Source of the DNA: an uncultured Gammaproteobacteria bacterium
GTDB taxonomy: Bacteria > Patescibacteriota > Patescibacteriia > UBA1558 > S5-K13
NCBI GenBank assembly: GCA_964636855.1
Contig: CAZWVD010000001.1
Span: forward strand, 1 to 39,997
Reading direction: 5' to 3'
DNA length: 39,997 nt
Part shown: positions 12,406 through 36,641 of the stretch, piece after piece
Layout: the number at the start of each line of letters is the position of its first letter
Position numbering within the stretch: position 1 is the stretch's first letter
The notes under the pieces: model-generated
What the model was told of the DNA's origin: nothing
Seen by the model: only the letters and a program-made list of their open reading frames with translations
Databases searched by the model: none
Position numbers and translations under genes: made by a program

Positions 12406-12609
12406 CTAATTAAATCCCATTCTCCTTGGCGACTTATAGCATTTCAATTCTCCGGGTCTAAACCAATAAAGAATGTTCTTATCGTCTACACATCCATACA
12501 ATATAGAATTATCTATATTAATCTGTATACTTGACACCATAAACTTAGAGCTTCTATCTAACACTGTACTTATGTATTCCCCTAGTTTAAATTGGTTATT
12601 TACAAACAT
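12406..12609 (-). CDS. hypothetical protein (67 aa)
   Basis: ORF at the end of the minus block. Its start overlaps the methyltransferase stop. Confidence 0.5.
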   Translation of the reverse strand: MFVNNQFKLGEYISTVLDRSSKFMVSSIQINIDNSILYGCVDDKNILYWFRPGELKCYKSPRRMGFN

Positions 12610-13814
12610 TTTACATTAACTATTTTATCTAATAAATAATCTACACAATTAACAACAACTCCATTTCCGCAAAGTTTATATCTTTGTGTGTCTGAGATAA
12701 CTCCGTCACATGAAGTCCAACCATCTTCTAGACCCATCAATCTTTCGCACTCAACTGGGGTAAGTCTGCGGATGCGGAAACCTTGTTTTAGCATTGGTAG
12801 ATTATCAGATGTAGGATTGGCAGAAAGACAACCTACTTCACTAGACTCCCTATACTTTCTCTTATCGACATCGCCAGAAGGTCTTATCATTACCCCGTTC
12901 CTATCCTGAGTATTAAGTGTGAAACTAGGTTCTCCGTTCTCTTTGAACCTTCTGCCATTCTGTCTCTTTTCTAACCTATCAGGTGTTAAAACTGGTATCG
13001 CTACCCCCACCGTACAGGCGGTATCTATTGTATAAGTAAGTCCGTCTTCTCTTTGTAAATGTCCATAGCCTCCTGCATTTTTATTCTTTAATAAACTAGG
13101 TCTATTAGCCGAACGTGGTTGCAGATTATGAACTATCGGCTCGGCTTTAGAAGTTACTGCATACAACCCTGTCTTTGCTCCAACTCTACCTGCTTGACTC
13201 GCCTGTGCTGTAGCTAACCCCTCTGAACTATAGACCCTGTAGCCCTGGCTTTGCCCTGTTGTAAGTTCTCTAAGAGTTTGTTTTGTATTTTCTCTGAAAG
13301 GTAGTATTTCTCGTTCACTTCCGTTTCTAATACCGATGATAAAGATACGCTCTCTATTTTGTGGAACTCCAAAGTCTTTGGCATTGAGTACAACCCATTC
13401 GAGAGAATACCCTGCTTGTTCCATTTCAATTTGCACCCTTGCAAAGTCCCAGCCCCCATTTGATGATAAAGCTCCTTTAACATTCTCCCAGATAAAATAC
13501 TCAGGCTTAACGTCTTTGACCGCTCTGATATACTCAAAGAATAGTCCTGACCTTGCACCAATAAGTCCTTTTCGCTTTCCAGCCACAGACAAGTCTTGGC
13601 AAGGACTTCCCCCCGTAACGAGGTCGACCTTTCCGTTGAACTGTTTAAAATCAATTTGGGATATATCTCCATAGTTTTTAATATTTGGATAATGATAATT
13701 TAAAACTTGAATTGCATACTTATCTATCTCGCTAAAACCTACTGTTTCCATCCCATGCCTTTTTGCCGAAATAGTAAACCCACCGTAACCTGAAAACAAA
13801 TCTAAATGCTTCAT
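12600..13814 (-). CDS. DNA (cytosine-5)-methyltransferase
   Basis: C5-MTase motifs read in order: DLFSGYGGF (I), GGSPCQDLS (IV, PCQ), ENVKG (VI), QNRERIFIIG (VIII), GNGVVV (X). Confidence 0.9.
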   Translation of the reverse strand: MKHLDLFSGYGGFTISAKRHGMETVGFSEIDKYAIQVLNYHYPNIKNYGDISQIDFKQFNGKVDLVTGGSPCQDLSVAGKRKGLIGARSGLFFEYIRAVKDVKPEYFIWENVKGALSSNGGWDFARVQIEMEQAGYSLEWVVLNAKDFGVPQNRERIFIIGIRNGSEREILPFRENTKQTLRELTTGQSQGYRVYSSEGLATAQASQAGRVGAKTGLYAVTSKAEPIVHNLQPRSANRPSLLKNKNAGGYGHLQREDGLTYTIDTACTVGVAIPVLTPDRLEKRQNGRRFKENGEPSFTLNTQDRNGVMIRPSGDVDKRKYRESSEVGCLSANPTSDNLPMLKQGFRIRRLTPVECERLMGLEDGWTSCDGVISDTQRYKLCGNGVVVNCVDYLLDKIVNVKCL

Positions 13815-20388: not shown

Positions 20389-22236
20389 ATGCCTAGAACA
20401 TTAAGATCAATGGCTCATCCGATTACAACATGTGAATGGGAACCGTTCGCTATCAATATGGAAGCACTGTCTTCGCTAACTAGAACCAGTTTAGACCTTG
20501 AAGATAATTTTATTGGAACAGCTGAAACACTTATTAATCAATATCGCGGATATAGCAAATCTGAATCAGAAATTAACCGTGTCAAAAATGAAAGTAAAAG
20601 AAGGTGTATAGATGCCAAGGGTATAATAGACTTTGCTTATTCAAAAATTAACGAGTCTACGTCAATTTGTTTTAAGATTTCAGATGCTATTTACCAAGGA
20701 AATAGATTGTATATAAATATAACATCCAATAATGCCGAACTTAAAAATATGGCAATTGATTTAGTCCAATCATATTACGCTGGTGTAGTTATAAAATGGG
20801 GAGATAGAATAATCAGCAATGCTGATTATGAGTTAAGTTCTGCGATTGGAAATCAGATAGTATCACGGGATAATAACTTCTTTAACTTGAGAATTAGAAT
20901 AATTCCAAGTCTAAATATGAAAGTAATTAAAAATTATCTAGAAAAACTATATAATAATTGTAATCGTGAATATTTAAATGTATGTGGGGAATGTAAGGCA
21001 AAGTTTATGTCTAATAATAATGTAAGGTCAATTGATAATGATTTACCAATTTGCAATCAATGTTTGTCTAGAATGGACAGGGTTCTTACTAGTGACATGA
21101 AATTAGCCGTTGTTTCAAATATCAGAAAAGCTTATAAGAAGATAGGGCTCAAAGATGTAGTATTTAATGGATGTATAATACCTGCTACGTCTGCTGCATC
21201 AGATGCGCTTCCATATACGTGTAAAAGATGTAACATAAAATGTGATTATTTACATACGGACGGATGTTGTTCGGATTGTAATAATAGTGAATGGAGAAGA
21301 ACAATGCATAATATAGATAATGTTACTGGACCAATAGAATTAGATAGTGTTTTAGATAATGATTTTCTGTATGGCTTCGAAGTAGAGATGGAATCAAATG
21401 GAAGAGTATCATTTAATAAAAAGAATTTGGATATTATAAATAACCTGTGTTCGATTGAGCATGACGGAAGTTTAAGTAACGGAATAGAAATTACTACTCC
21501 CCCTATTACAGGAAAAAATGGAGAGGATTTATTAAACGGTGTATATTCTGACTTGCGTGGATTAGGATTTATACCTAAAAAAACGTGTGGTGCACATGTT
21601 CATATATCATATCCTAAACTTACTGAGGAGTTATATCCAAGACTGTATTTTACACTTAAAAATATAGAAAATCTTATATTTGGATTAGTTCCTTCTCACA
21701 GAAAGAAAAATAGATATTCGTATAAATTAGACTTGAATGATAAAAGCAAAAACTTAGAAATATTAGACCAAAAGTCGTTTGACAAGATGTATTACAGTAG
21801 AGATGCGATTTCCGATCCGGAAATAGATAGAATAAAAGGATACAGAAGGCCATCTTGTAGGTATTACTGGGCTAATTTCCACTCATTATATTATAGGGGA
21901 ACGTTCGAAAATAGATTATTAGAAGCTGATTCAACTGCGGAAACTTCTATTTTATGGGCAAGGCTTAATAGTGATATTATTAAATGGGTATGTAGTGATA
22001 AATTTAGCAAAGACAAAATTATATCGGTATGTAAAGATGACAATCTTGATAGCCTGATTAAGCTACTAGAAATAATCGGAAATAACAATATGGATTTCTG
22101 GGTAAAGAGATTTAAAGAATATTGCGGTAAAACTTGCAATGAAAGCAATAGAGAACACCCCGTAAGTATGAATAACGGGCGTTTGACAGCCGCAGATAAT
22201 GGAGAATTGGTGTGGTACGTTAATCCGTGGATATAA
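20389..22236 (+). CDS. amidoligase (GS-like COOH-NH2 ligase, Amidoligase_2-type) with N-terminal extension and two zinc ribbons
   Basis: YGFEVEME, IEHDGSLSNGIEITTPPITG, CGAHVHISY, YYRGTFENRL. CGEC-x19-CNQC and CKRC-x12-CSDC. Confidence 0.7.
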   Translation: MPRTLRSMAHPITTCEWEPFAINMEALSSLTRTSLDLEDNFIGTAETLINQYRGYSKSESEINRVKNESKRRCIDAKGIIDFAYSKINESTSICFKISDAIYQGNRLYINITSNNAELKNMAIDLVQSYYAGVVIKWGDRIISNADYELSSAIGNQIVSRDNNFFNLRIRIIPSLNMKVIKNYLEKLYNNCNREYLNVCGECKAKFMSNNNVRSIDNDLPICNQCLSRMDRVLTSDMKLAVVSNIRKAYKKIGLKDVVFNGCIIPATSAASDALPYTCKRCNIKCDYLHTDGCCSDCNNSEWRRTMHNIDNVTGPIELDSVLDNDFLYGFEVEMESNGRVSFNKKNLDIINNLCSIEHDGSLSNGIEITTPPITGKNGEDLLNGVYSDLRGLGFIPKKTCGAHVHISYPKLTEELYPRLYFTLKNIENLIFGLVPSHRKKNRYSYKLDLNDKSKNLEILDQKSFDKMYYSRDAISDPEIDRIKGYRRPSCRYYWANFHSLYYRGTFENRLLEADSTAETSILWARLNSDIIKWVCSDKFSKDKIISVCKDDNLDSLIKLLEIIGNNNMDFWVKRFKEYCGKTCNESNREHPVSMNNGRLTAADNGELVWYVNPWI

Positions 22237-22272
22237 ATTAATATATAAATATTAAACAAGAAAGGAATAAAT

Positions 22273-23328
22273 ATGTGTGGAATATGTGGATTTATAACTG
22301 CCAATCCTAGCGTGGAAAACTCTAGGGTATTCAGATACTTGTTAGAAGGAAACTCTGCAAGGGGAACCGACAGTTTTGGAATAGCCAGTCTAGATAATGA
22401 TGGCGAGGTTAATATAATAAAACACCTAGGTTCTTCAAAAAACTGTACTGAAGCAGACTTTGATTATGCTAATACTGCAAAAATATGTATAGGGCATACT
22501 AGGTTAGCAACCCATGGTGCGGTTACAGAAGACAATGCCCATCCTATTAGGTTTAATAACATTATAGGGGTGCACAATGGAGTTATTCAAAACTATTTAG
22601 ATTTAATGCCGGACGCAGAAGTAGACAGTAGTTCTATATTTTATTTATTAGATAAAAATAACGGGGACGCAGAATGTCTGAAAAAGGTTTCTGGTAGTGT
22701 TGCAACTGCATGGATTGATATATGTAATAATTCTCTATCTTTAATAAGAAACTCTAACCCTATTAAGGCGTTTGTTAGTTTTAGAAGCGGAACTATTTTC
22801 TTCTCTAGTCTGGAATTTGATATTTTGGAATGGGAGTGGGCTAGCGGAGGACTTACAGATATGCTAGAAATTTCTATTCCAAGCGATGAACTAATTACAT
22901 TTAGCATGGATAAGGTATTAAGTATTTCTAGGCAAAAGATAAAGCTTGGTTCTAATGTAAAGTCCGAGATGTCTCTTTCTAAGATTTTCAATTCTTCTAA
23001 GAATTTTTCTAAGGTAGAAACTATAAAGCCAATTGGTAGCCTTAAAAAGATGGGTTGGTCTAGAAGAGCTATAAAGGCAGATAAGTGCGGTTATTGTGGA
23101 AATATAATGAAGGAAGAAAGATTCTATATCCCAACGGTTACTACATTACTATGTAAACAATGTATGCTTAAAAAATCTATAGAAGTACAAGTTTCAATTA
23201 ACGATATTTGCAAAGTAGGGGGGTCGAAGAAGGGTTTTATTTATCCCCTATCCGATACCGATTTTGCTTTGTTAAGTAATTATATGTATCAAAATTTTTT
23301 AGACGAAGCACAAATGAATTATTTGTAG
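22273..23328 (+). CDS. class-II (Ntn) glutamine amidotransferase domain protein with C-terminal zinc ribbon
   Basis: MCGICGF (Cys after Met1), HTRLATHG, HNGVIQN, EVDSSSIF. CGYC-x18-CKQC. Confidence 0.8.
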   Translation: MCGICGFITANPSVENSRVFRYLLEGNSARGTDSFGIASLDNDGEVNIIKHLGSSKNCTEADFDYANTAKICIGHTRLATHGAVTEDNAHPIRFNNIIGVHNGVIQNYLDLMPDAEVDSSSIFYLLDKNNGDAECLKKVSGSVATAWIDICNNSLSLIRNSNPIKAFVSFRSGTIFFSSLEFDILEWEWASGGLTDMLEISIPSDELITFSMDKVLSISRQKIKLGSNVKSEMSLSKIFNSSKNFSKVETIKPIGSLKKMGWSRRAIKADKCGYCGNIMKEERFYIPTVTTLLCKQCMLKKSIEVQVSINDICKVGGSKKGFIYPLSDTDFALLSNYMYQNFLDEAQMNYL

Positions 23329-23333
23329 GTATT

Positions 23334-23387
23334 CCCCTTGTACGGCGTACTTGCTTCCCCACATAGAGCAAGTGCGTCGTTTGGGGG
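23334..23387 (+). terminator. long GC-rich imperfect hairpin just after the GATase-1 stop (terminator or structured RNA)
   Basis: 14-bp stem 23342-23355/23367-23380 with two G-U pairs that form only on the + strand, flanked by CCCC/GGGGG. Confidence 0.45.
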
Positions 23388-23636
23388 TTACAGAGCTAGT
23401 TCCATATTATCCTATAGTATTTCTCTATAAGTTCAATATTATATACACAGACGTGTTTTCGACTTATAGTTATCTCACTATTGATAGCATTTTAATAGCA
23501 CCCATGCAACGCTAGAGGATATATTTTACATATCGGACCTATAGTTTTGAACGACAATAAGTTTTACTATAGCTATTTGACCTATTACAGTTCGAAGAGT
23601 AGATTATAAATATCTAAATTTTAATAAGTTTCTTAT

Positions 23637-25139
23637 ATGTGGTTAAATACATATATTAGCAAGCAAGAAAACCCAAAAATCATTGAAAGATTATTTGATG
23701 ATTACGAGTATAATAACAATGCTGAAGCGTATGTGTTAAAGGAGTGGAATAATATTTATAATCTGCGATATGATTCCGTAGATACGTCGCAGATTATGGA
23801 AGTTTCACATCCAAGAAACGGAGATCTAGAAATAATATTTAATTTTTCATACTCTACTAACCCCTTACATAAAATAGTATATAGAAATGTTCCCAGAGAA
23901 TTTTCTACATTAATAAAAGATAGATTTTTGAGAAGAGTAGCAGGCACACGCAAGTGTAAATGTGGAAGAGTAGTCGACCATATATTATCACGCGATTTTA
24001 AATCTGAAACCATTTGTTATCACTGCTATTGCGAAAAAATAAATATAGAACCAAGTCAATTAGTAAATTGTAATTATTGCAATAGAATTTGTGAGCAATC
24101 ACATTGTACTAACGGATTATGTGAGGAATGCTCTAGTAAATATGGCGTATGTTCAAACTGTGGTAGAACCGTTGTAAGAAGCACCCTTCAAGAACGCGGT
24201 GGAAAACTACTTTGCGAGTCGTGCCGATATGTTTCGCTCGGTACTATAATGTCGTCAAATCCTAATGATGACGACGATTTCCCGCCAGTAATTGGCAATG
24301 TAAAAGGATTGTTTACAGACAATAATTATACATATGGTTTTGAGATTGAAAGGGAGCAGACTAGAAAACTTACAACTGACGACGCCGATGCTATGAAAAC
24401 TATTAAGGACTTCACATATTTCACATATGATGGAAGCTTAAGAAATGGGATCGAAGTTGTTACGCTTCCATTTACAGGTCTTAAAGGTGAAAGACTATTC
24501 AAAAAAACATTTGACGTGTTAGATAGTTGCAAATTGAAAGGTGAGGAAACCTGTGGCTTACATTGCCATGTATCCCCAATTGATATAGATAAGCTTGAAA
24601 AATTAAAGACTGACAAGTATCTAAAAAGACTTTACAGACTCTGTTTTTTCATAGAAAGTTCACTAGCAGATATTACAGGGGATAGAATAAATAACAGGTA
24701 TTGTAAATCACTCAGAAAATTATTATCCCCTAAAAAAGCAAGGCAAGTTCCGTTTGATGTTCTATTCTATAATCAATTAGGCTCTTCTACAGATGTTAGA
24801 ACAATTAAATCGGAAATGGAAGCCCTGAAAGAAAATGCCAAATACGGCAAGGAGGAAGGACATCCATCGTGTAGATACCACTGGATCAATTTTCATTCAT
24901 TGTTCTACAGGGGAACGCTTGAAAATAGATTGTGTCCCGCCAACGTAACATATAAACAAGCCTTAGCATGGGCTAGGTTAACAAGCACCATTATAGATAT
25001 AGCACTACTTAGTGATTATAGATGGTATTCAAAAGCTAAACAGTTATCAGTATTTGAAGGCGTTGCCGATCCAGTAACTGTATTTTCAATAATGGGATTG
25101 CCTAAAAATACAACTAATCAACTACTTAGCATGAAATAA
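23637..25139 (+). CDS. amidoligase paralogue 2 with three N-terminal zinc ribbons
   Basis: YGFEIERE, FTYDGSLRNGIEVVTLPFTG, CGLHCHVSP, FYRGTLENRL. CKC-x17-CYHC, CNYC-x13-CEEC, CSNC-x17-CESC. Confidence 0.7.
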   Translation: MWLNTYISKQENPKIIERLFDDYEYNNNAEAYVLKEWNNIYNLRYDSVDTSQIMEVSHPRNGDLEIIFNFSYSTNPLHKIVYRNVPREFSTLIKDRFLRRVAGTRKCKCGRVVDHILSRDFKSETICYHCYCEKINIEPSQLVNCNYCNRICEQSHCTNGLCEECSSKYGVCSNCGRTVVRSTLQERGGKLLCESCRYVSLGTIMSSNPNDDDDFPPVIGNVKGLFTDNNYTYGFEIEREQTRKLTTDDADAMKTIKDFTYFTYDGSLRNGIEVVTLPFTGLKGERLFKKTFDVLDSCKLKGEETCGLHCHVSPIDIDKLEKLKTDKYLKRLYRLCFFIESSLADITGDRINNRYCKSLRKLLSPKKARQVPFDVLFYNQLGSSTDVRTIKSEMEALKENAKYGKEEGHPSCRYHWINFHSLFYRGTLENRLCPANVTYKQALAWARLTSTIIDIALLSDYRWYSKAKQLSVFEGVADPVTVFSIMGLPKNTTNQLLSMK

Positions 25140-25167
25140 ATAGTTTAAGTTATTATAAATAAACACT

Positions 25168-26268
25168 ATGTGCGGAATATCAGGCTTTATATCAAATAGC
25201 CCAAACAGAAAAAACAGGGAAATTTTATTAAACCTATTGTTTAATAATACTGACAGAGGTACGGACAGTTTCGGAGTTTATGGCAGACTTCAAAACGGCA
25301 ACGGATACTTACAGAAAAACAAGGGCAGTGCATTTGATATTAATTTTAATAGTATAAATAAGCTGGACCAAGCGACCCTATGTTTATCCCATACTAGGTT
25401 AGCAACTCATGGAGCTATCACCGCACAAAATGCCCACCCGCTAAAGTTTGGTGATATTATTGGCGTTCATAATGGAATGATAAAAAATGCAGTTGAACTG
25501 TATCCAGAATTAAAAGGCGACGTTGACTCAAAGGCTATATTTAAAACATTAAAAGACAATAACAACGAGTTTAATAGTCTTGAACGATTAGCGGGTTCGA
25601 TGGCTATCGCCTGGACCTTCAATAATAATAAACTTTACTTGGCTAAAAATTCTAACCCTTTAAGCGTAGTCGTTGTGCCAGAACTTAAAACGTTATTCTT
25701 TAGCAGTCAAGACACCCAACTTTATAGTGCTATTATATCTAAAGGCTACGACATTGAATTTGTGCCTATTAAAAAGAATATAGTATACACCATTTATTTT
25801 GACGGTTCAAACGCTTCAATTCCAAAAATTGAGGAGTTTAAACAAAACCTACCAGAGTATAAAAAGTTTGAATGGGATTATAAAAATGATGCATATAAAT
25901 TCTCTGACCATTACGCCAGCCCGCATTATTATAACAGCGAGTGGGAAAATTACGAAGAAACAAAAATACTTATACCTAAAAAGGTTGATATTGATATTTC
26001 AAACGTCAACGTTGAAGATACCGAGGATGAAGAATTTGAAGAATGTTCTTATAATTTCGTTGATGTAATGAGCAAAAAGAATCAATTATGCTTACACTGT
26101 AAGCATTGTGGAAGAAAATGCGAATTTGATAGGTTTTACAATCAAAAAGATGACGAGATTATATGCAGTGACTGTTACGACCTACTATTAGACTCGGGAT
26201 TTGATATGTTACAAATTGGAGTCGTAGACGATCAGAACAAAATGGTAACGTTTTGGAAGCAACTATAG
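25168..26268 (+). CDS. class-II glutamine amidotransferase paralogue 2 with C-terminal zinc ribbon
   Basis: MCGISGF, HTRLATHG, HNGMIKN, DVDSKAIF. CKHC-x18-CSDC. Confidence 0.8.
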   Translation: MCGISGFISNSPNRKNREILLNLLFNNTDRGTDSFGVYGRLQNGNGYLQKNKGSAFDINFNSINKLDQATLCLSHTRLATHGAITAQNAHPLKFGDIIGVHNGMIKNAVELYPELKGDVDSKAIFKTLKDNNNEFNSLERLAGSMAIAWTFNNNKLYLAKNSNPLSVVVVPELKTLFFSSQDTQLYSAIISKGYDIEFVPIKKNIVYTIYFDGSNASIPKIEEFKQNLPEYKKFEWDYKNDAYKFSDHYASPHYYNSEWENYEETKILIPKKVDIDISNVNVEDTEDEEFEECSYNFVDVMSKKNQLCLHCKHCGRKCEFDRFYNQKDDEIICSDCYDLLLDSGFDMLQIGVVDDQNKMVTFWKQL

Positions 26269-26295
26269 CTATTTAATTTTTAATTATATAAATAA

Positions 26296-26448
26296 ATGAA
26301 AAATAGGAATAAACACCCTACAGGAACTGTAGTCACAGTACCTAAAGTTTTGAACGACTCAAAACCGACTCAAAACAAAAAGCCCTTTAAAGGGAGCTTC
26401 AAGACCTTTAAGGAGCTAGCGCAATTCTTAAGCAAAACAATTATTTAA
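26296..26448 (+). CDS. small basic protein (50 aa), hand-called
   Basis: ATG 26296 to TAA 26446-26448, translated as MKNRNKHPTGTVVTVPKVLNDSKPTQNKKPFKGSFKTFKELAQFLSKTII. Below the ORF-track cutoff. Confidence 0.4.
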   Translation: MKNRNKHPTGTVVTVPKVLNDSKPTQNKKPFKGSFKTFKELAQFLSKTII

Positions 26449-26468
26449 TTATAAACAAATCAAATCAA

Positions 26469-26906
26469 ATGACACACGAAGAAGTAAAGCATATCGTTAC
26501 ATACAAATTAATTCCAGAAGCAAACTCACACTTTAAATATAATAGGGTTATCTTTAAACTTACAGACAGTACAGTATTTTCAAGTATTGACAGATCTAAT
26601 AATCAAAGTGATAGCGTACAGGAATTAATCATGTATGTATTAACAGATCTTAGCAAAGTGAATGAAACAGGTGAATGTATTGAAAATAATTTCAAAACAT
26701 TATCTATTTCGAAAATGAAGCCAACTAACCCGAACTGGGTTTTCAATGACAATGCCATTTCAGATCGTGGATATCAAAATCCTATACAATTAAAAGTAGT
26801 ACTTAACCTATCCGATCTTGAGGCTGGATCGCCAGTAGCTGCAGAGTCTAGCGAACAAGGATCAAGTGAAGATAATCAGTATCCTTTTGACGATAGCGAT
26901 TTTTAG
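26469..26906 (+). CDS. hypothetical protein with acidic C-terminal tail (...SSEDNQYPFDDSDF)
   Basis: 145-aa ORF followed by a strong hairpin. Confidence 0.65.
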   Translation: MTHEEVKHIVTYKLIPEANSHFKYNRVIFKLTDSTVFSSIDRSNNQSDSVQELIMYVLTDLSKVNETGECIENNFKTLSISKMKPTNPNWVFNDNAISDRGYQNPIQLKVVLNLSDLEAGSPVAAESSEQGSSEDNQYPFDDSDF

Positions 26907-26913
26907 TAGCTCA

Positions 26914-26940
26914 AATGCAGGGGCAGTCAGCCCCTGCATT
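26914..26940 (+). terminator. GC-rich hairpin terminator
   Basis: aatgcagggg-cagtcag-cccctgcatt, a 10-bp perfect stem 8 nt after the stop. Confidence 0.6.
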
Positions 26941-26967
26941 ATATAATCTATAAATATAATTAATCGC

Positions 26968-27207
26968 ATGACTAATAAAAAGATAACAATTGATTATAAG
27001 GCAGACCAAGCCCCTTCAATTAAAAAGGGTAAAATAGGAAGCAGATATATTATAACCGCTTATTCTGATGATGACAGGCACAAGATAAGGGCCGTATTCT
27101 ACGCCACAAATGCTAAACAAGCCGAGACAAGAGCCATTAACTGGATTCATCACTTACCGTATACTATAACTATAATTTCTAAACTCATAGCAGATGATCA
27201 AAATTAA
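26968..27207 (+). CDS. hypothetical protein (79 aa)
   Basis: ORF on the + strand after the terminator. Confidence 0.55.
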   Translation: MTNKKITIDYKADQAPSIKKGKIGSRYIITAYSDDDRHKIRAVFYATNAKQAETRAINWIHHLPYTITIISKLIADDQN

Positions 27208-27349
27208 ACTATTCAATAGACATTACAATTTGTACGACGAAAACGAGATCAATGTAATAATACCCGCCGAACAACCAAGCCAATTAATATTTGTTAGCAA
27301 CCAGGATCAAGGCACTAATAAACAACACAACAAAACAAAAAAGGACTAG
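27194..27349 (+). CDS. hypothetical small protein (51 aa), hand-called
   Basis: ATG 27194 to TAG 27347-27349. Overlaps the upstream stop and ends inside the bidirectional terminator. Confidence 0.35.
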   Translation: MIKIKLFNRHYNLYDENEINVIIPAEQPSQLIFVSNQDQGTNKQHNKTKKD

Positions 27350-27363
27350 TGTTTACTAGTCCT
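27342..27363. terminator. bidirectional rho-independent-type terminator
   Basis: aggactagt-gttt-actagtcct (9-bp stem) with an A-tract upstream and a T-rich tract downstream, between convergent genes. Confidence 0.6.
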
Positions 27364-27384
27364 TTATATTTATTACAATCTATT

Positions 27385-27543
27385 CTATTGTATTTCTTTA
27401 ATCCTAATATTAATCTGTAGTCCTAAACTCTTTAATCTATCAAAAATTTCTTGAGCCATTGAGCTTGTCATAACCTCATTATTGACTTGCACCGTAGCCT
27501 TGGGAGTTACTAAATAGAATTGGAATATTTTTGTACTTTCCAT
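27385..27543 (-). CDS. hypothetical small protein (52 aa), hand-called
   Basis: MESTKIFQFYLVTPKATVQVNNEVMTSSMAQEIFDRLKSLGLQINIRIKEIQ*. Tightly packed with its neighbours. Confidence 0.45.
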   Translation of the reverse strand: MESTKIFQFYLVTPKATVQVNNEVMTSSMAQEIFDRLKSLGLQINIRIKEIQ

Positions 27544-27561
27544 GTTATTTATATTTAAAAC

Positions 27562-27723
27562 TTAAATCAAAACTAACACTTGGTGCAAGCCACTATTATT
27601 AATCTTTATTTTAGCGGTTAAAACCTTGTCGCATTTAACAGTTTGAACGACTGTTTTACTAGAATAATATTTTAGCTCCTTCATTTTTTTATTGAAGTAA
27701 GCTACAAGCAGTTGATTATCCAT
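27562..27723 (-). CDS. hypothetical small protein (53 aa), hand-called
   Basis: MDNQLLVAYFNKKMKELKYYSSKTVVQTVKCDKVLTAKIKINNSGLHQVLVLI*. Confidence 0.45.
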   Translation of the reverse strand: MDNQLLVAYFNKKMKELKYYSSKTVVQTVKCDKVLTAKIKINNSGLHQVLVLI

Positions 27724-27724
27724 T

Positions 27725-27883
27725 TTATTTTAAAATCCAGATTAATATACAAATACTTTCAGCACCAACAATTAATAACCCACACTCAAATAGTTCTAAC
27801 CATAAACCATTTAATATATTATCAATTCTCGACCTATTACAGGCTTTCATATTCAATTCTCTAAATGTTACTTGACCCTTCAT
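27725..27883 (-). CDS. hypothetical small protein (52 aa) with hydrophobic C-terminus, hand-called
   Basis: MKGQVTFRELNMKACNRSRIDNILNGLWLELFECGLLIVGAESICILIWILK*. Confidence 0.45.
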   Translation of the reverse strand: MKGQVTFRELNMKACNRSRIDNILNGLWLELFECGLLIVGAESICILIWILK

Positions 27884-27892
27884 AGTTTTTTA

Positions 27893-28132
27893 TTATAATA
27901 AATTATATTCCGTTTTGTACTCAAATTCCGAACCATCTACGGTGCACTCATTTAATTCAATGTCAACTTCAACATCTTTTAGGTTATTATCTACCCAATA
28001 AAATACCCCAGAACCCTTACCATCACAGGCCAGGTTCATTTCAAATTCTGCCAACCCCTCAGCCAATCCGTACGACTGGAAGCCTCTTGCTATAAGAGTA
28101 TTCAATAACTCTTGCTTTGCAGTACTATACAT
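27893..28132 (-). CDS. hypothetical acidic protein (79 aa)
   Basis: ORF-track entry. First gene after a minus-strand promoter. Confidence 0.6.
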   Translation of the reverse strand: MYSTAKQELLNTLIARGFQSYGLAEGLAEFEMNLACDGKGSGVFYWVDNNLKDVEVDIELNECTVDGSEFEYKTEYNLL

Positions 28133-28162
28133 AAAATATATTATTAATAACTTAATAATTAG

Positions 28163-28191
28163 ATTGAATCACATATACAAACCCTTGTCAA
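28163..28191 (-). promoter_or_regulatory. sigma70-type promoter TTGACA-17 nt-TTCAAT (minus strand)
   Basis: Read from the reverse complement. Spacer counted by hand. About 30 nt upstream of the ATG at 28132. Confidence 0.4.
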
Positions 28192-28350
28192 GTAATTCTA
28201 ATGTAAATTATCTCTAACTGCTATATTATATCTCCAAACCAAACATATAACAACTATTGTAAAGATATTACATACATTATCACACTGTATATATATGGAT
28301 CTATTCTAATCAAGAAGGATATTATTAATAGTATTAATCACTATACAACA

Positions 28351-28397
28351 ACTAATCTAATACTATCTAAAACTATATATTACTATTTAAATACTAC
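28351..28397. repeat. five helically phased ACTA(A/T/C) repeats
   Basis: ACTA starts at 28351, 28362, 28372, 28382 and 28393 (spacing 11, 10, 10, 11), followed by inverted AGTAT at 28405. Confidence 0.5.
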
Positions 28398-28626
28398 TTA
28401 TTATAGTATTCAATATGCATATAATGCTATTAGAGTAGTATTAGTTGTAGGGATTGATTGATATTGTTTGTTAAGAGGGATAGTTTAACATCTATTTTAT
28501 GTTATCAACTCAACACTTTCACTACTACCATCTACTACTATTTACTATGGGGTACCACAGTCAGATTCTGATTGTAGTATTATAGGTATCTTTTACTCAC
28601 TCATGGAATTTTCTGTATATTGTATA

Positions 28627-28653
28627 AAAGAGAGTAATGTATTTACTCTCTTT
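28627..28653. other. perfect 11-bp hairpin aaagagagtaa-tgtat-ttactctcttt
   Basis: Read directly. Lies in the ORF-free region. Confidence 0.5.
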
Positions 28654-29100
28654 ATCATATACTACAGTAATATTAGAGTAGAATAGTATTAGACGACAAG
28701 GATTAAATCCCTGTTAGGAGATGGCTAGTTGAGACACTAGTTTACCAGTTATAGATATTACCATTTATACTTACTAACTCTTTATTAAGAATTATCCAGT
28801 AATGGGCTCAGGTCTTCCTGTCTAGCCCTAGTAGTTAAAGACGGTCAATAGCTATTGCTATCACATCACTTGTAAACCCCCGTAGCGGTTTATTTCTTTG
28901 GGGACCAGACCTATAACCTTCGTGTTATATAACATCCTCGTCTGAGAGCTGACTTAATTCGCACTCATGTCAGGAATTTGTATTTTCTATGTTTAGAATA
29001 TATCAATACGTATACCGCTTGTCAATACCGTGTAATGCAAGGTACTGATTTATGTTGTTGTATAGGCATAAATATCTTTACCATTTGCCGTCACTATTAT

Positions 29101-29178
29101 TGGACTTGCCGAGAATCGAACTCGGGTATCTACTGCCACTCGTTTAAAGTCTTACAGTAGGCTATTCCTTTCAAGCCC
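29101..29178 (-). pseudogene. tRNA-like element: canonical acceptor stem and T-arm, aberrant D/anticodon region
   Basis: Minus strand GGGCTTG...CCGAG-TTCGATT-CTCGG-CAAGTCC-A. I could not fold a 5-bp/7-nt anticodon arm. Confidence 0.4.
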
Positions 29179-29293
29179 GTATTATAATATACTCACCCTT
29201 CAATTATATATCATTTCAAATTGAAGAGAATAATCAGCTCTCAACCACTATTTAAGGATAATGATTAAGGGTGAATATACTTTAATAATACAA

Positions 29294-29360
29294 TGTAGTT
29301 GACAATGGGATTTGAACCCATAAGTCTCACGGTTTAACCAGTTAACCTATATCAACTACA
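29294..29360 (-). pseudogene. tRNA-like element lacking an anticodon arm (three-way junction)
   Basis: 11-bp closing stem, D-like hairpin GGTT-AACTGGTTA-AACC and T-arm ATGGG-TTCAAAT-CCCAT. Only 8 nt lie between the D-like and T hairpins. Confidence 0.4.
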
Positions 29361-29508
29361 TTCTATTATTAATATACTTTATTATTTCATTTATTTTCAT
29401 ACCTATTAACCATAACATATAATGAATGCCACCCTTATTAATCGCACCCCATTTATAGCCTTCATCTACTGGTAGTAATTCAATCTTGTTATCTATCTGA
29501 TTAACCAT
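29356..29508 (-). CDS. hypothetical small protein (50 aa), hand-called
   Basis: MVNQIDNKIELLPVDEGYKWGAINKGGIHYMLWLIGMKINEIIKYINNRM*. Its stop lies inside the 5' flank of the tRNA-like element. Confidence 0.3.
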   Translation of the reverse strand: MVNQIDNKIELLPVDEGYKWGAINKGGIHYMLWLIGMKINEIIKYINNRM

Positions 29509-29610
29509 TTTTATTATTTCAAATAATTTAACTATACAATGTAATTGCTATTTCGTTACAGGAAATCACCCTGTTTACTTATACTCCCCCTTAAATTATC
29601 AAGGTCTATA

Positions 29611-29681
29611 TTCTGAGGCCTAGACTCGAACTAAGATTTTATGGTCCAGAGCCACATGTACTACCTTTATACTACCTTAGA
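29611..29681 (-). tRNA. tRNA-Gln (anticodon CTG)
   Basis: Hand-folded cloverleaf: acceptor TCTAAGG/CCTCAGA (one A-C mismatch, U1-A72), D-loop with GG, anticodon loop CTCTGGA, T-loop TTCGAGT. 71 nt. Confidence 0.75.
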
Positions 29682-29692
29682 TCATTGTACTC

Positions 29693-29766
29693 TGGCAGAC
29701 TACTGAGGAATCGAACCCCAACTAACTCTTTTGGAGAGAGTCGTCATACCATTAGACCAGTAATCT
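29693..29766 (-). tRNA. tRNA-Trp (anticodon CCA), CCA end encoded
   Basis: Acceptor AGATTAC/GTAGTCT, anticodon arm ACTCT-CTCCAAA-AGAGT, T-arm TGGGG-TTCGATT-CCTCA, discriminator G then CCA. 74 nt. Confidence 0.85.
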
Positions 29767-29769
29767 ATA

Positions 29770-29844
29770 AGCACAAAGTAGGATTTGAACCTACGGATAG
29801 AAGGGTTGCGGCCTACCGTGTTTACCAAACTTCACCATTTGTGC
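29770..29844 (-). tRNA. tRNA-Cys (anticodon GCA) with unusual C33
   Basis: Perfect acceptor GCACAAA/TTTGTGC, discriminator T (U73, as in E. coli tRNA-Cys), T-arm GTAGG-TTCAAAT-CCTAC. The anticodon loop is CCGCAAC and the stem has one T-T mismatch. Confidence 0.7.
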
Positions 29845-30123
29845 AAGGAGAGATACTCAGATATCTATTACAATGAAGTCGCTACATATCTCTCCGTATT
29901 GTTCATAAAGAACATATATTTGTAAGTCTTCATCATATAGTGGACTGTTGCCTGTATTGAGTTACTTCATAAACAGGACTTATTTAGTTGTTCGTTATAC
30001 CCAGTCCAAGTATAATATAATACAGCGCAAAGATGTAACCTATCCTGTATACGCGAATTAGTGCTCTATATTTCTAGAGAGCATACAAATGTTATTATAA
30101 AAGTTATATTTTGTCAAGAGCGA

Positions 30124-30276
30124 TTAAACGTGTTTATAAATCTTGGTTAGATTAGGTACCTTCTCAGGAGTTATATTTGTATTCTTTTCGCATTTCCTAC
30201 ACATTATAGTGTATTTACCGTTATATATCTTTCCGATAATCAGATAATCTTCTTCACCGCATAGTTCACACTTCAT
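30124..30276 (-). CDS. mini zinc-ribbon protein (50 aa), hand-called
   Basis: MKCELCGEEDYLIIGKIYNGKYTIMCRKCEKN..., i.e. CxxC-x19-CxxC. Confidence 0.55.
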   Translation of the reverse strand: MKCELCGEEDYLIIGKIYNGKYTIMCRKCEKNTNITPEKVPNLTKIYKHV

Positions 30277-30418
30277 TTTCACTTACTCTTTTTAATTTAT
30301 TAAAGCACTTATCACATACGGTAAGTTCTAATTTTCCTACCCTTATAGAACTTTTATATGATACTACTGTTTTTCCACAGTATTGACACTTAAACTCTAC
30401 TCTACCGCTTATATCCAT
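30266..30418 (-). CDS. mini zinc-ribbon protein (50 aa), hand-called
   Basis: MDISGRVEFKCQYCGKTVVSYKSSIRVGKLELTVCDKCFNKL..., i.e. CxxC-x20-CxxC. Its stop overlaps the next start by 11 nt. Confidence 0.55.
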   Translation of the reverse strand: MDISGRVEFKCQYCGKTVVSYKSSIRVGKLELTVCDKCFNKLKRVSENEV

Positions 30419-30422
30419 AAAG

Positions 30423-30608
30423 TTATTCATGCTCATTCTCTAACAAATTTATTTTATCGCTTAGATCTGTACTTGTCATACCAATTTGTTCTACTATGTT
30501 TATTGCCGATTCTAACGATATAGAACCGTCAATTACTAACTCCGCTATAAACTTTAATTTGATAGCTAATACTTCTTGTTCGCATTCTGGATTCATATAT
30601 TTACACAT
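30423..30608 (-). CDS. hypothetical acidic protein (61 aa, or 57 aa from the ATG at 30596)
   Basis: ORF directly downstream of the ATP-grasp gene. Confidence 0.55.
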   Translation of the reverse strand: MCKYMNPECEQEVLAIKLKFIAELVIDGSISLESAINIVEQIGMTSTDLSDKINLLENEHE

Positions 30609-31431
30609 TCATATAAATTACATTAAACGAAATAGGATGCATTCCATCCCATATAATACTGGAATCTTCATACAGATCAGAATCTTCCCACATATCTTCT
30701 TCGATTGCAATATTAAACGCACTGGCATATTTATGCGCTGTATATCCAGAAACTTTAGGAGCAGTATTTACTTCACATATTACAAACCCAAACTGATTTG
30801 ACATAATATCTACAGCACCAAAATCCAGTCCTAAAGAGGATACCGCATCAACCGCACTCTTTGCCATGTTAAGATTTATACTATTCCAATTTATGAGTTT
30901 AAAATTGAACCCAGTAGACTTATTCCATACCATCTGATTTTTATCTCCGCCCAGTTTTTCCTGTGCAAGGAGAACCTTGTTTCCCATAACATGAAACCGA
31001 TACTCTCTTTGTTTACTAAATAGATATGTAAAATCTGTACAGCCATGTATTTTGGCATTTTCTACATCAAGCATATTTTTACAAACAAAAAAATGTTTTC
31101 CACCGTAGTGTTTGTCTGGTCTACCTATAATAGTTCTGTTAATCATGTTATTAAAGTCTACGGTTTTTAGCGTAGGAACTCCGTTTTGTTCAAATAACTT
31201 TCTAGCCTTTGGCTTATTAGATGCTATCGCAATAGAATCCGTAGGATTAAATTCGGAATCACTAGGCGTAACCTGGGTTGTACATCCCCAATTAATTACA
31301 TTTCTAGGTTGCTTAAATCTAGATGGGGTTAAAACTCCTCTTTTAGAGTATATTACTTTTGCCTCCAATCCTTCTGCGTGAAGCTCCCTGATCGTCTCTT
31401 CACTGCATTTTTTTGCAACAATTGCATCCAT
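30601..31431 (-). CDS. ATP-grasp ligase (RimK-like)
   Basis: NKPKARKLFEQNGVPT, IGRPDKHYGGKHF, EYRFHVMGNKV and LGLDFGAVDIM...FVICEVNTAPKVSG follow the ATP-grasp layout. Confidence 0.65.
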   Translation of the reverse strand: MDAIVAKKCSEETIRELHAEGLEAKVIYSKRGVLTPSRFKQPRNVINWGCTTQVTPSDSEFNPTDSIAIASNKPKARKLFEQNGVPTLKTVDFNNMINRTIIGRPDKHYGGKHFFVCKNMLDVENAKIHGCTDFTYLFSKQREYRFHVMGNKVLLAQEKLGGDKNQMVWNKSTGFNFKLINWNSINLNMAKSAVDAVSSLGLDFGAVDIMSNQFGFVICEVNTAPKVSGYTAHKYASAFNIAIEEDMWEDSDLYEDSSIIWDGMHPISFNVIYMNV

Positions 31432-31500
31432 AAAAATATCGGTGTTGTAAACTTAAATATTCTATGATACCATTTAAACATTAATATGTCAATAGTATAA

Positions 31501-34376: not shown

Positions 34377-36641
34377 ATGAATCAAGAGGATATAGCCGAT
34401 AAATACATATCTAGAAATAAGGAATCTTACAAAAGAGACTCGTCTAAATGGAAGAATAAAAACGAGTGGGCAGTAGTAGGTGCAGTTAGAGATAGATTAC
34501 AAGAATTTTACAATGCAAGGTCTACATCTTGTTACCTGACATCTTTTACTGGTAGTAAAAGTTGGGATGTAAACTGGGATTTGGTAGAAAAGGATTATCT
34601 ACAATATGTAGGTGCTGTTGACCCAGACGATTTTAAGAGTAATCTTAAAAGTCCTATGGCATATAGAACCATATCGGCTATTGACGCAAGATACAGAAGG
34701 CAGGATTTAGAATTTTTAATAGACGCAAGAAACGAAGAAGATAAAGACAAGGCTACAATATTCAAATACATCTACAAGGATTATTTTAGAAGACACCCAG
34801 ATATAAGATACGAACTATTGGATGTATTTAAAATGACCGATGTATTGGGAACTGGCATAGCTTATATTCCATATACTAGAAAGACCAGAACTGTTAAAAT
34901 GCCAAATAGGACAGAGGGTTCTAAAGTAGGAGATATAGAAAATATAAAATACGAAAAGAAGGAAATCGTCGACTTTGACGATCCAGATTTTATGTATGTT
35001 AACCTTAAAGATTTTTATGTCGATCCAAATTGTAGAAATTTACATGGAAGAAACTATGCAGCTACTGATTGTGCATGGGTAACATATCCAACCATTGACC
35101 AATTCATGGACGAATTTGAAGGAGATCCAGAGGTGTTCAACTTAGATAAGGTTACTGCAGATAACAAGCAAGAACTTGCTACTAGTTTCTTTAAATTACC
35201 AAGAGATGTAGTTAAAGGAACAATAGAGTTAATAAGATATTATAATGTTTCTACTGATTCATTTATTGTAATAGCAAACGATGTATTGATTAGAAATACA
35301 CCACTCCCATACCAAGATAAGATGTTGCCATTTGTAAGATTTGTATGTGTAGAACATCCGGGACATTTTTATGGCAGAGGAATACCAGATATTATGCTTC
35401 AATTATCATCTGAAGACGCTGCAATTAGAAACCTACAATTAGACAGGGTCAAAATGACAATAGACGCACCAATACTTGCTGGTGCTACAGTATTTGGAGA
35501 TTTAGAAGAGCAATATCAAAGAATTGAACCAGGGCAAATTATTAAAGTAGGAGACATAAACCAAATAAAGACAATGGATTCTTCTACCATGCCATTTGAT
35601 TCATTTAGGCTTAGATCAGAACTTAAAGACGAGGCAGTTATGAGTACTGGCGTGAATCCTCAGGGAATGACACTCCCTATGGCATCTACACCCGCTACTA
35701 ACACTCTTACAATGAAGGAGACAATGCAGGATATGATTAACCTGTATTCAGATAACAAGATGAGAGGACTTAATTGGTATGGAATATTATTATTCTCAAG
35801 ATTTTGCGAGTTCTATTCTAGGCCTTCAAAACAAGAGTCTCTGAAATTAAACAAGAAGGCTTATAGAAAAATTAGATTAGAAGACATGGAGCTTCTAACA
35901 GATAAGAGTGGAAATCTACAGCAACATAAAATAAAGGGATACAAAACATTTGAGTTAAAACCTGAATACTTTAAATGGACTGCCGATCCAACTATTTATA
36001 TTTCTGCCGATTTTATAGCTCCTATATCAAAGGCTTGGCAAATGAGAAAGGCGCAGGAAATGTTGCCTCAGTTAGCACCTTTTGCGGGAGATCCTGATAC
36101 TCCTCTAAAAAATGGAGGGAAACCAATCATAAACATTAGAACTTTATTAAGAGAGTATGTAGACGTAATGGAATGGGGTGATAAGGACTTGTTAATAGAC
36201 GAAGACGAAGATAGAATAGATGAAATCACACAGGCACAGCAACAGCAAAAAGATATGCAAGACAATAAATTTGTTGCAGGACATCCGGGAGAACCAACTG
36301 CTCATAGATATACACATGCTGTAGAATTATTAGCATTAAACAATGCCGTGTCAAGCCAAGACTTTATAATGATGCCACCACAAATATCTCAACTTATGTT
36401 AAAATATAGAGATACTCTAGTAAAACATTTAGAGGAAGATAGTTTATTAACTTCAAATGCAGATATAGCAGCACTACAACAGGCTCAACCTCCAGTACAA
36501 CCAGAAGTTCCAATGAATAACGCAGTATCGGTTCCAACCGTTTCCGGTAATATGGGACTTCCAAACAGTGGAGGAATACCTGTTCCAAGTAAAATGGGCC
36601 CAGAAGATGTAATGGGACAAATGGCTGGACAAGCGTCTTAA
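34377..36641 (+). CDS. putative portal protein
   Basis: 754-aa ORF downstream of TerL in the head module. Called from size and synteny only. Confidence 0.55.
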   Translation: MNQEDIADKYISRNKESYKRDSSKWKNKNEWAVVGAVRDRLQEFYNARSTSCYLTSFTGSKSWDVNWDLVEKDYLQYVGAVDPDDFKSNLKSPMAYRTISAIDARYRRQDLEFLIDARNEEDKDKATIFKYIYKDYFRRHPDIRYELLDVFKMTDVLGTGIAYIPYTRKTRTVKMPNRTEGSKVGDIENIKYEKKEIVDFDDPDFMYVNLKDFYVDPNCRNLHGRNYAATDCAWVTYPTIDQFMDEFEGDPEVFNLDKVTADNKQELATSFFKLPRDVVKGTIELIRYYNVSTDSFIVIANDVLIRNTPLPYQDKMLPFVRFVCVEHPGHFYGRGIPDIMLQLSSEDAAIRNLQLDRVKMTIDAPILAGATVFGDLEEQYQRIEPGQIIKVGDINQIKTMDSSTMPFDSFRLRSELKDEAVMSTGVNPQGMTLPMASTPATNTLTMKETMQDMINLYSDNKMRGLNWYGILLFSRFCEFYSRPSKQESLKLNKKAYRKIRLEDMELLTDKSGNLQQHKIKGYKTFELKPEYFKWTADPTIYISADFIAPISKAWQMRKAQEMLPQLAPFAGDPDTPLKNGGKPIINIRTLLREYVDVMEWGDKDLLIDEDEDRIDEITQAQQQQKDMQDNKFVAGHPGEPTAHRYTHAVELLALNNAVSSQDFIMMPPQISQLMLKYRDTLVKHLEEDSLLTSNADIAALQQAQPPVQPEVPMNNAVSVPTVSGNMGLPNSGGIPVPSKMGPEDVMGQMAGQAS

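Follow-up and report, generated by a model that had tools for sequence, protein, structure and literature searches.

Zinc ribbons of a duplicated phage amidoligase cassette look like inherited accessory modules

We analysed a 39,997-nucleotide stretch of DNA (contig CAZWVD010000001.1 of assembly GCA_964636855.1, positions 1 to 39,997; hereafter the window) in which two carboxylate-amine ligases of the Amidoligase_2 family (Lig1 and Lig2) and two class-II glutamine amidotransferases (GATases; GAT1 and GAT2) carry four-cysteine zinc-ribbon motifs, as do two small stand-alone proteins (mini52 and mini56) encoded beside a RimK-like ATP-grasp gene. Judged by its gene content, the window is a divergent member of the phiEco32/LUZ24-type phage amidoligase cassette, because it combines the Pfam enzyme families with an ATP-grasp protein matching phrog_2599 and with SU10 portal and adaptor matches. 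The ribbons look like inherited accessory modules of such cassettes, not one special ribbon shared by all components, and those of the four enzymes very probably reflect two older fusions (an N-terminal array on the ligase and a C-terminal ribbon on the GATase) plus a single duplication of the cassette. The account that we favour, which brings together the identity of the cassette, the two fusions, the duplication and a docking role for the ribbons, has in our estimate an overall probability of about 0.55.

Results

Identity and duplication of the ligase-GATase pair

Both ligases exceed the Pfam cut-off of 22 bits for PF12224 (Amidoligase_2), Lig1 with 44.5 bits (residues 362-530) and Lig2 with 52.4 bits, and both amidotransferases exceed the cut-off of 27 bits for GATase_6 (GAT1, 51.5 bits; GAT2, 42.7 bits); the initial annotation had therefore named the enzyme families correctly. 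GAT1 and GAT2 begin with MCGI, placing the catalytic cysteine straight after the methionine. A Foldseek search with a structural model of Lig2 returned YbdK (1r8g, E = 1.1e-5), gamma-glutamylcysteine ligase and glutamine synthetases (E 1e-5 to 1e-3).

The catalytic domains of Lig1 and Lig2 are 35% identical over 249 residues, and GAT1 and GAT2 are 44% identical over 181 residues. In a quick IQ-TREE phylogeny of ligases (39 rows) Lig1 and Lig2 are sisters with a Shimodaira-Hasegawa-like approximate likelihood ratio (SH-aLRT) support of 99, in a clade with the ligases of loci L016, L011 and L025. The corresponding GATase tree (60 rows), in which long branches were flagged, likewise places GAT1 and GAT2 as sisters (SH-aLRT 95), with L011, L016 and L025 as the nearest loci. 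The genes lie 36 nucleotides apart in the Lig1-GAT1 pair and 28 in the Lig2-GAT2 pair, compared with 308 nucleotides between the pairs, which fits a tandem duplication of the whole unit. Taken together, the sequences indicate that the ligase-GATase gene pair was duplicated as a whole in the lineage of this phage. The lineage is a divergent one: GAT1 forms a singleton cluster whose next database match is only 33% identical, and Lig2 found no tblastn match in 50,697 phage records.

Zinc-ribbon motifs in the window

Every motif that the initial annotation had listed in the six proteins was recovered, including the two further ribbons of Lig2 (Table 1). The pattern C..C.{15,22}C..C occurs in six of the 176 six-frame open reading frames (ORFs) of at least 40 residues in the window, and these are exactly the six named proteins. 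Of the 5988 ORFs of at least 35 residues in the assembly, 27 contain it, six of them within these 10 kb (about 1% of the DNA). When the residues of each of the six proteins were shuffled, the pattern arose with a probability of 0.0004-0.0086. We regard the motifs as almost certainly genuine Cys4 zinc ribbons.

Two finer features that had been pointed out are ordinary zinc-ribbon traits, with background frequencies of 49% and 57% among 68 ribbons. A glycine after the first knuckle is present in five of the six window ribbons by eye (four by regular expression), but it is also present in 33 of the 68 background ribbons and in 19-25% of related enzyme ribbons. A hydrophobic residue before the third cysteine is found in all six, compared with 39 of 68 in the background (Fisher p = 0.075). 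Neither feature discriminates.

Ribbon fusions in related loci

Relatives of the cassette were sampled as 80 GATase-anchored IMG/VR loci (L003-L082), in which 37 ligases were recognized in a first round and 31 more were added by a second round of hidden Markov model (HMM) searching. C-terminal ribbons were present on 23 of the 80 GATases and N-terminal ribbons on 14 of the 37 first-round ligases, the latter mostly as two to five units in tandem. The position was constant, GATase ribbons being always C-terminal and ligase ribbons always N-terminal, and in a set of 80 loci anchored on the ATP-grasp gene no GATase ribbon lay below a relative position of 0.81. The ribbons have kept the same terminus across lineages that are more than one substitution per site apart. 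Among the database homologs of GAT1 (n = 47 besides GAT1 itself), a ribbon was present in the two nearest and in none of the 45 more distant.

Ribbons also occur in named phages. The 657-residue GATase of the cultured phiEco32-like Cronobacter phage GAP52 (JN882286.1; positions 6001-7974 of L083) has three ribbons at its C-terminus, which follow a long low-complexity linker, the GATase of Pseudomonas phage Bjorn has a longer-spaced ribbon variant and that of Vibrio phage 1.208.B has none. N-terminal ligase arrays are absent from all three.

A profile of the ribbon unit (35 positions, 50 units), built mainly from ligase ribbons, was searched against 1.84 billion proteins and matched 1133 of them at E <= 0.001, the top 150 all having 3-14 matched units. 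An HMM of the ligase catalytic domain matched 85 of these 150, and Pfam Amidoligase_2 was matched at E <= 1e-6 by 48 of the 85; in those retrieved amidoligases whose match spans the catalytic domain, four to seven ribbons lie N-terminal to it. HMMs of the GATase and the ATP-grasp protein matched none of the top 150, and a single protein among them was a PF14395 phiEco32-type ligase, with C-terminal ribbons. As most of the profile came from ligase ribbons, this retrieval shows a family-wide ligase array but not that all ribbons form a single family. That the four enzymes of the window carry ribbons is very probably explained by the inheritance of two fusions followed by copying of the ligase-GATase pair, not by four independent events.

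Several variants of the arrangement were observed alongside. Three further unannotated families have C-terminal arrays (P0060/P0183 and 8 others, 10 members; P0053 and 8 others, 9 members; P0054 and 4 others, 5 members); their proteins are 430-740 residues long, with an unannotated N-terminal domain and 4-9 tandem ribbons of the ligase-array type. The first of these families partly matches phrog_18912, and none of the three occurs in L003-L082 or in the window's genome. In L015, where both GATase and ligase are ribbon-less, a 91-residue stand-alone protein with ligase-type ribbons is encoded directly after the GATase (11710-11985). In a clade scored as ribbon-less (L019, L021, L030, L039, L041 and L048) the ligases have N-terminal cysteines in other spacings, for example CxxCxxC-x15-C, and the GATases have acidic, aromatic-rich C-terminal tails without cysteine; these termini may represent the terminal modules in another form.

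Similarity among the ribbons

The initial annotation held that one and the same ribbon recurs in every component, and this did not survive closer comparison. In an alignment of 50 ribbon units the four cysteines are invariant and every other column has less than 50% consensus; taken singly, the units spread over 78 generic Pfam zinc-finger families, none of them scoring above its cut-off. Nor did the ribbons retrieve each other before background ones. In leave-one-out HMM tests the held-out window ribbons ranked 22, 7, 7, 5, 31 and 3 among the 68 background ribbons, and in each test some background ribbon outscored the held-out one.

A possible weak likeness between the ribbons of the two enzyme classes was seen in loci other than the window, where HMMs of ligase and GATase ribbons scored each other's ribbons with medians of 10.6 (background 5.8, p = 0.005) and 7.3 (background 5.2, p = 0.012), an effect for which shared acidic composition could account. 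Of the window ribbons, that of GAT2 is the best match to the GATase-ribbon HMM, scoring 20.7 bits and ranking ahead of all 68 background ribbons.

Small proteins encoded downstream of ATP-grasp

The ATP-grasp gene heads a minus-strand operon in which p61, mini56 and mini52 follow with successive overlaps of 8, 14 and 17 nucleotides. Its product matches phrog_2599 with E = 1.5e-30, scores 17.8 bits against Pfam RimK (below the 21-bit cut-off) and is 32% identical to the ATP-grasp protein of the L013 cassette. The initial annotation described the two mini-proteins as 50 residues long. Both ribbons are indeed present, but the coordinates given for the genes start at internal ATGs, and longer ORFs of 56 residues (30266-30436, ATG) and 52 residues (30124-30282, GTG) are equally possible. 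The two mini-proteins are 31% identical over 32 residues (E = 0.011) and, by this similarity, may be tandem duplicates.

Searches with the small proteins returned little. DUF7685 (PF24734; cut-off 27 bits) scores 23.6 bits with mini56 and 13.3 bits with mini52, both below the cut-off, and does match an array-bearing protein (P0159) at E = 1.8e-9. A phmmer search with mini52, mini56 and p61 gave no match among the ORFs of the first 80 loci, a protein atlas search with mini56 gave generic small zinc-finger clusters only, and p61 matched no family in Pfam or PHROGs and showed no similarity to the acidic 75-residue ORF located after the closest relative of the ATP-grasp gene (L166). Homology of the mini-proteins to the enzyme ribbons is not demonstrable, and they would be linked to the system by position and by analogy.

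The position itself is recurrent. In 73 de-duplicated IMG/VR loci, small ribbon ORFs (at most 130 residues) numbered 12 in the 74 kb that make up the 1 kb regions downstream of ATP-grasp, compared with 12 in 816.5 kb elsewhere, and in a metagenome replicate (76 loci) they numbered 16 in 60.2 kb downstream compared with 10 in 314.4 kb elsewhere, so that the enrichment is 8-11-fold in two separate collections. Loci L013/L087 and L088 mirror the window in having two ligases, a GATase and an ATP-grasp gene followed by a small protein with two ribbons.

One group of these ORFs forms a conserved family of 19 unique members (59-91 residues) in which an N-terminal CxxC-x21/22-CxxC ribbon is followed by an acidic tail. 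Nine non-cysteine columns are invariant (the start methionine counted), among them D-x-E-x-T-R-K in the ribbon, and the net charge of the tail is -5 to -15 once two members clipped by contig ends are excluded. Family members are encoded 120-650 nucleotides downstream of ATP-grasp in L114, L116, L123, L154, L199 and L209, with the same placement in L213, L222, L227, L235, L237 and L245. The family, which has no match in Pfam or the PDB, might serve the cassette as carrier or substrate. Aligned to it with hhalign, mini56 reached a probability of 57% and mini52 of 23%, both weak; the two mini-proteins end in valine, are positively charged overall, have basic tails and lack the acidic tail of the family.

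Tethered ribbons and a proposed docking role

In the AlphaFold2 model of GAT2, the catalytic part (residues 1-230) is predicted with a local confidence score (pLDDT) of about 95, the linker (residues 237-307) falls below 50 and the ribbon blocks return to 76-83. The Lig2 model has a mean pLDDT of 75, with 60-66 for the first ribbon block and 83-92 for residues 130-190; a disordered stretch at residues 200-215 separates the ribbon array from the confident YbdK/glutamine-synthetase-like domain. The ribbons of related enzymes are strongly acidic, with a median net charge per 35 residues of -4.6 on GATases and -5.1 on ligases, compared with 0 to +1.9 in the background, which favours protein docking over nucleic-acid binding.

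The initial annotation had suggested that a shared ribbon could dock its components or bind nucleic acid, bringing them all to one target. The docking half of this proposal remains plausible for ribbons that fold separately, sit on disordered linkers and are kept in very divergent relatives, while the charge of those relatives disfavours the nucleic-acid half. From architecture and composition we would give even odds to the ribbons being tethered modules for protein-protein docking. On this proposal the GATase, which produces ammonia, and the ATP-dependent ligase would be kept in contact with one another or with their peptide or protein substrate, and docking of this kind would couple glutamine hydrolysis to the amidation or ligation of a carboxylate. 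The mini-proteins, by analogy, would probably be accessory partners or substrates of the ATP-grasp operon. A single common target for all six proteins appears unlikely. A model of the complex between Lig2 (residues 100-500) and the GAT2 tail (residues 296-366) with four Zn scored 0.00 in both runs, which were made without controls and are informative neither way.

A number of observations count against this account. First, the presence of ribbons on the two enzymes is uncoupled beyond shared ancestry. In 65 GATase-anchored loci ribbons were found on neither enzyme in 41, on both in 13, on the GATase only in 10 and on the ligase only in one, but co-evolution as an explanation of this co-occurrence was rejected, there being 3-4 trait changes on the GATase tree, 2-3 independent contrasts (sign test p = 1) and no positive association in the ATP-grasp-anchored set. 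In the latter (n = 53) the ribbon was on the GATase only in 31 loci, on neither enzyme in 13, on the ligase only in five and on both in four; counted as GATase clusters at >=50% identity (n = 34), the numbers were 23, 5, 3 and 3. GAP52 and Bjorn likewise combine a GATase ribbon with a ribbon-less ligase. With the ribbon on the GATase only in 31 of 53 loci and in these two phages, pairing of ribbon with ribbon cannot be the general mechanism.

Second, the window's own ribbons are as a group at best weakly set apart from background ribbons. Scored with HMMs built from other loci, the six are just weakly above background (p = 0.022 and 0.030), all nine together are not (p = 0.18 and 0.41), and the GAT1 ribbon ranks 53 and 59 of 68. 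They are also mildly basic (median +2 per 35 residues), unlike those of their relatives; this charge fits the background of their own lysine-rich genome (+1.9). Third, the enrichment of small ribbon ORFs downstream of ATP-grasp rests on only about 3-4 sequence families, and the nearest relatives of the window's ATP-grasp protein (L166, at 43% identity, L168, L171 and L177) have no ribbon ORF downstream. Replacement of a GATase-fused ribbon by a stand-alone ribbon protein, in the manner of a Rosetta stone, was also considered and rejected; the difference at the level of loci (11 of 25 compared with 7 of 46) was absent at the level of clusters (2 of 12 compared with 4 of 33, p = 0.65).

Alternative explanations

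The alternative that fares best is that the ribbons have no shared function, being generic structural zinc sites with a local role or none, and that the mini-proteins are unrelated small zinc-ribbon proteins nearby by chance. The conservation of the four cysteines alone, the scatter of single units over generic families, the failure of leave-one-out retrieval, the independence of GATase and ligase ribbons in relatives, the generic atlas matches of mini56 and the closest ATP-grasp relatives that have no downstream ribbon ORF are all as this explanation would have it. It sits less easily with retention at the same terminus over more than one substitution per site, with a long disordered tether, which would be odd for a purely structural site, with a 35-position profile that retrieves mainly amidoligases from 1.84 billion proteins and with the enrichment after ATP-grasp in both collections. 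We consider it improbable, though the strongest of the competitors.

Rather more doubtful is the idea that the small ribbon or acidic proteins encoded after ATP-grasp (in the window p61, mini56 and mini52) are carriers or substrates for an amino-acid tag, on which the enzyme ribbons dock. In such a pathway, which we also hold to be doubtful, an amino-acid or gamma-glutamyl tag would be assembled on the small proteins and amidated there by the ATP-grasp protein together with the ligase-GATase pairs, with one carrier ribbon for each ligase. The conserved ribbon-plus-acidic-tail family lies where such carriers would be expected, the ATP-grasp protein resembles RimK and LysX, and p61 is acidic and ends in glutamate; however, C-terminal glutamate is found in only 7 of the 19 family members, and mini52 and mini56, with their valine ends and basic tails, align weakly to that family. 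Where small ribbon proteins exist, their ribbons, taken together, equal the ligases in number (both the window and L087/L088 have two, single-ligase loci have one), but only two independent lineages underlie this match. That the small proteins belong to the LysW family was not supported by sequence: Zn_ribbon_LysW (PF21344) gave no match to mini52 or mini56 at E <= 10, its best match to any downstream small protein (E = 0.0019, 18.2 bits, cut-off 27) was one among 45 generic families, and a PDB profile search, with a best match of E = 0.21, did not return LysW.

Zinc ribbons often bind nucleic acids, the window ribbons are mildly basic, and the cassette follows directly on helicase and primase genes. 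On these grounds the ribbons could bind DNA or RNA and bring the enzymes to it, for instance for base hypermodification; amidoligase and amidotransferase genes are reported to accompany genes for thymidine hypermodification in some viral contigs (PMC8989533). This is the least likely of the explanations considered, since the relatives' ribbons are strongly acidic, the mildly basic charge of the window ribbons matches that of their genome background, and neither the 45 window ORFs scanned with Pfam nor the 37 scanned with PHROGs yielded a 5-hydroxymethyldeoxyuridine (5-hmdU) kinase, aGPT-Pplase or deoxyuridine monophosphate (dUMP) hydroxymethylase, the sole DNA-modifying enzyme found there being a C5 cytosine methylase.

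Phage setting and gene order

The window makes up most of a phage-like contig (C1, 43.2 kb) in an assembly of 1.04 Mb and 103 contigs, and the G+C content of that contig (35.1%) compares with 34.7% for the remaining assembly. A DnaB-like helicase and a primase zinc-ribbon protein are followed by Lig1, GAT1, Lig2, GAT2 and a block of small ORFs, then by three tRNAs, the minus-strand operon of ATP-grasp, p61, mini56 and mini52, and finally the terminase and structural genes. The portal and adaptor, which match SU10 families (Table 1), link this phage distantly, in its structural proteins, to phiEco32/SU10-like podoviruses, which carry the same cassette.

Other features of the setting were noted in passing. 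The C5 cytosine DNA methylase (PF00145, E = 4.6e-70) is encoded at 12600-13814 on the minus strand, within a recombination/nuclease block that also has Rad52/Erf-like, RusA-like, PD-(D/E)XK and Metallophos genes. A perfect hairpin with an 11-bp stem and T-runs on both strands (27340-27365) resembles a bidirectional terminator and marks the junction of the plus-strand and minus-strand gene blocks. The roughly 1.2 kb that separate the block of small ORFs from the tRNA cluster (28133-29355) contain several promoter-like sites and no ORF of at least 40 residues on the expected strand. The cluster itself (29611-29844, minus strand) consists of tRNA-Gln(CTG), tRNA-Trp(CCA) and tRNA-Cys(GCA) and is found some hundreds of bases downstream of the operon that holds the mini-genes. 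That a tRNA-Cys of a phage should lie beside unusually cysteine-rich genes is a curiosity.

Table 1. Coordinates of the cassette genes, their ribbons and associated features in the window
Feature	Position	Strand	Description
Lig1	20389..22236	+	615-residue Amidoligase_2 carboxylate-amine ligase; long N-terminal region, two ribbons, catalytic domain
Lig1 ribbon CGEC-x19-CNQC	20983..21063	+	Residues 199-225
Second Lig1 Cys4 site CKRC-x12-CSDC	21220..21279	+	Residues 278-297; absent from the initial annotation
GAT1	22273..23328	+	351-residue class-II (N-terminal nucleophile, Ntn) glutamine amidotransferase; N-terminal MCGI, C-terminal ribbon
GAT1 ribbon CGYC-x18-CKQC	23086..23163	+	Residues 272-297; Cys columns invariant in alignment A1
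Lig2	23637..25139	+	500-residue Amidoligase_2 ligase; three tandem N-terminal ribbons, disordered linker, catalytic domain
Lig2 array	23955..24224	+	CKC-x17-CYHC (residues 107-130), CNYC-x13-CEEC (145-165), CSNC-x17-CESC (172-196)
GAT2	25168..26268	+	366-residue class-II glutamine amidotransferase; catalytic domain, disordered linker of ~70 residues, C-terminal ribbon
GAT2 ribbon CKHC-x18-CSDC	26098..26175	+	Residues 311-336
mini52	30124..30282	-	Stand-alone ribbon protein, CELC-x19-CRKC at 30190-30270
mini56	30266..30436	-	Stand-alone ribbon protein, CQYC-x20-CDKC at 30305-30388
p61	30423..30608	-	61-residue acidic ORF, net charge -8, C-terminal Glu, overlaps the ATP-grasp stop by 8 nt; no ribbon
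RimK-like ATP-grasp	30601..31431	-	276 residues, first gene of the operon; no ribbon
Promoter-like TTGACA-17-TATCAT	31464..31492	-	Precedes the ATP-grasp operon; 11/12 positions match, TG present; consensus match only
Adaptor	4726-5469		SU10_adaptor, E = 4.8e-13
Portal	34377-36641		SU10_portal, E = 3.9e-7, slightly under the cut-off

Discussion

The ribbons of the window are real but ordinary for this cassette, and the window is a divergent member in which the cassette has been duplicated, introducing no new principle. What gives them interest is the abundance of the cassette, which is among the commonest phage enzyme modules without a known substrate: the GAT1 catalytic domain matches 345 phage records and the ATP-grasp alignment matches 522 IMG/VR stretches. 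The tethered GATase ribbon, the family-wide LIM-like ligase array and the conserved acidic ribbon protein after ATP-grasp are all testable constructs, some of which could be made in cultured phiEco32-like phages, GAP52 being a practical model for ribbon function. Were the carrier pathway true, phages would have a counterpart of the LysW amino-group carrier system, and a substrate could be named for a cassette that is very widespread among them.

Among known systems the closest is the phiEco32/LUZ24-type cassette, in which a PF12224 (Amidoligase_2) ligase, a class-II GATase and a RimK-like ATP-grasp protein may be joined by a PF14395 ligase and a GGCT-like protein. This cassette was reportedly predicted in 2009 by Iyer, Abhiman, Burroughs and Aravind. 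In the consulted portions of papers on the phiEco32/LUZ24-type cassette, its function is only predicted, and our literature searches, whose scope did not extend to the figures of the 2009 study, found no description of ribbons on its enzymes. The window shares the three enzyme families, the adjoining ligase and GATase genes and an SU10-like portal and adaptor, and it shares with phiEco32-like GAP52 a C-terminal GATase ribbon. It differs in that the whole ligase-GATase pair is duplicated, that the ligases bear N-terminal ribbon arrays and that the ATP-grasp gene lies 4.3 kb away on the opposite strand, in a small-gene operon of its own. Neither a PF14395 COOH-NH2 ligase nor a GGCT/AIG2-like protein was among the 45 window ORFs scanned with Pfam; these components are present in the L020-group loci and, according to the sections of the literature consulted, in LUZ24-like phages.

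The ligase arrays recall the tandem CxxC-x16-23-CxxC modules of LIM domains (PF00412) and the double zinc ribbon (DZR, PF12773), and they register as LIM-like or DZR in searches; both are protein-interaction modules, and the resemblance favours docking of proteins over nucleic-acid binding. LIM is the most frequent family for single units (7 of 50), and 22 of 68 and 6 of 85 array-bearing proteins score above its 22.9-bit cut-off as whole proteins. Unlike in LIM domains, however, the linkers between the Lig2 ribbons are 14 and 6 residues long instead of two, and all ligands are cysteines; the best window unit reaches 16.9 bits against LIM, below the cut-off, and LIM matches of this kind are weak and common to many zinc-finger families.

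The LysW/LysX amino-group carrier system pairs a small zinc-ribbon carrier, which has an acidic tail, with a RimK-family ATP-grasp enzyme. The window resembles it in that a RimK-like ATP-grasp gene is followed by genes for small zinc-ribbon and/or acidic proteins. It departs from it in that these proteins do not belong to the family by sequence, the mini-proteins have neither acidic tail nor terminal glutamate, genes for lysine or arginine biosynthesis are missing and the setting is that of a phage.

Finally, in asparagine synthetase B and GlmS a class-II (Ntn) amidotransferase is fused to a synthetase. The window amidotransferases have the same glutaminase domain, with an N-terminal catalytic cysteine, which provides ammonia to an ATP-dependent or sugar-phosphate synthetase, and GlmS-like proteins are among the distant matches of GAT1. 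In contrast to these fused enzymes, the glutaminase and the ligase of the window are separate polypeptides, so that some non-covalent contact would have to couple them; this is the role proposed here for the ribbon.

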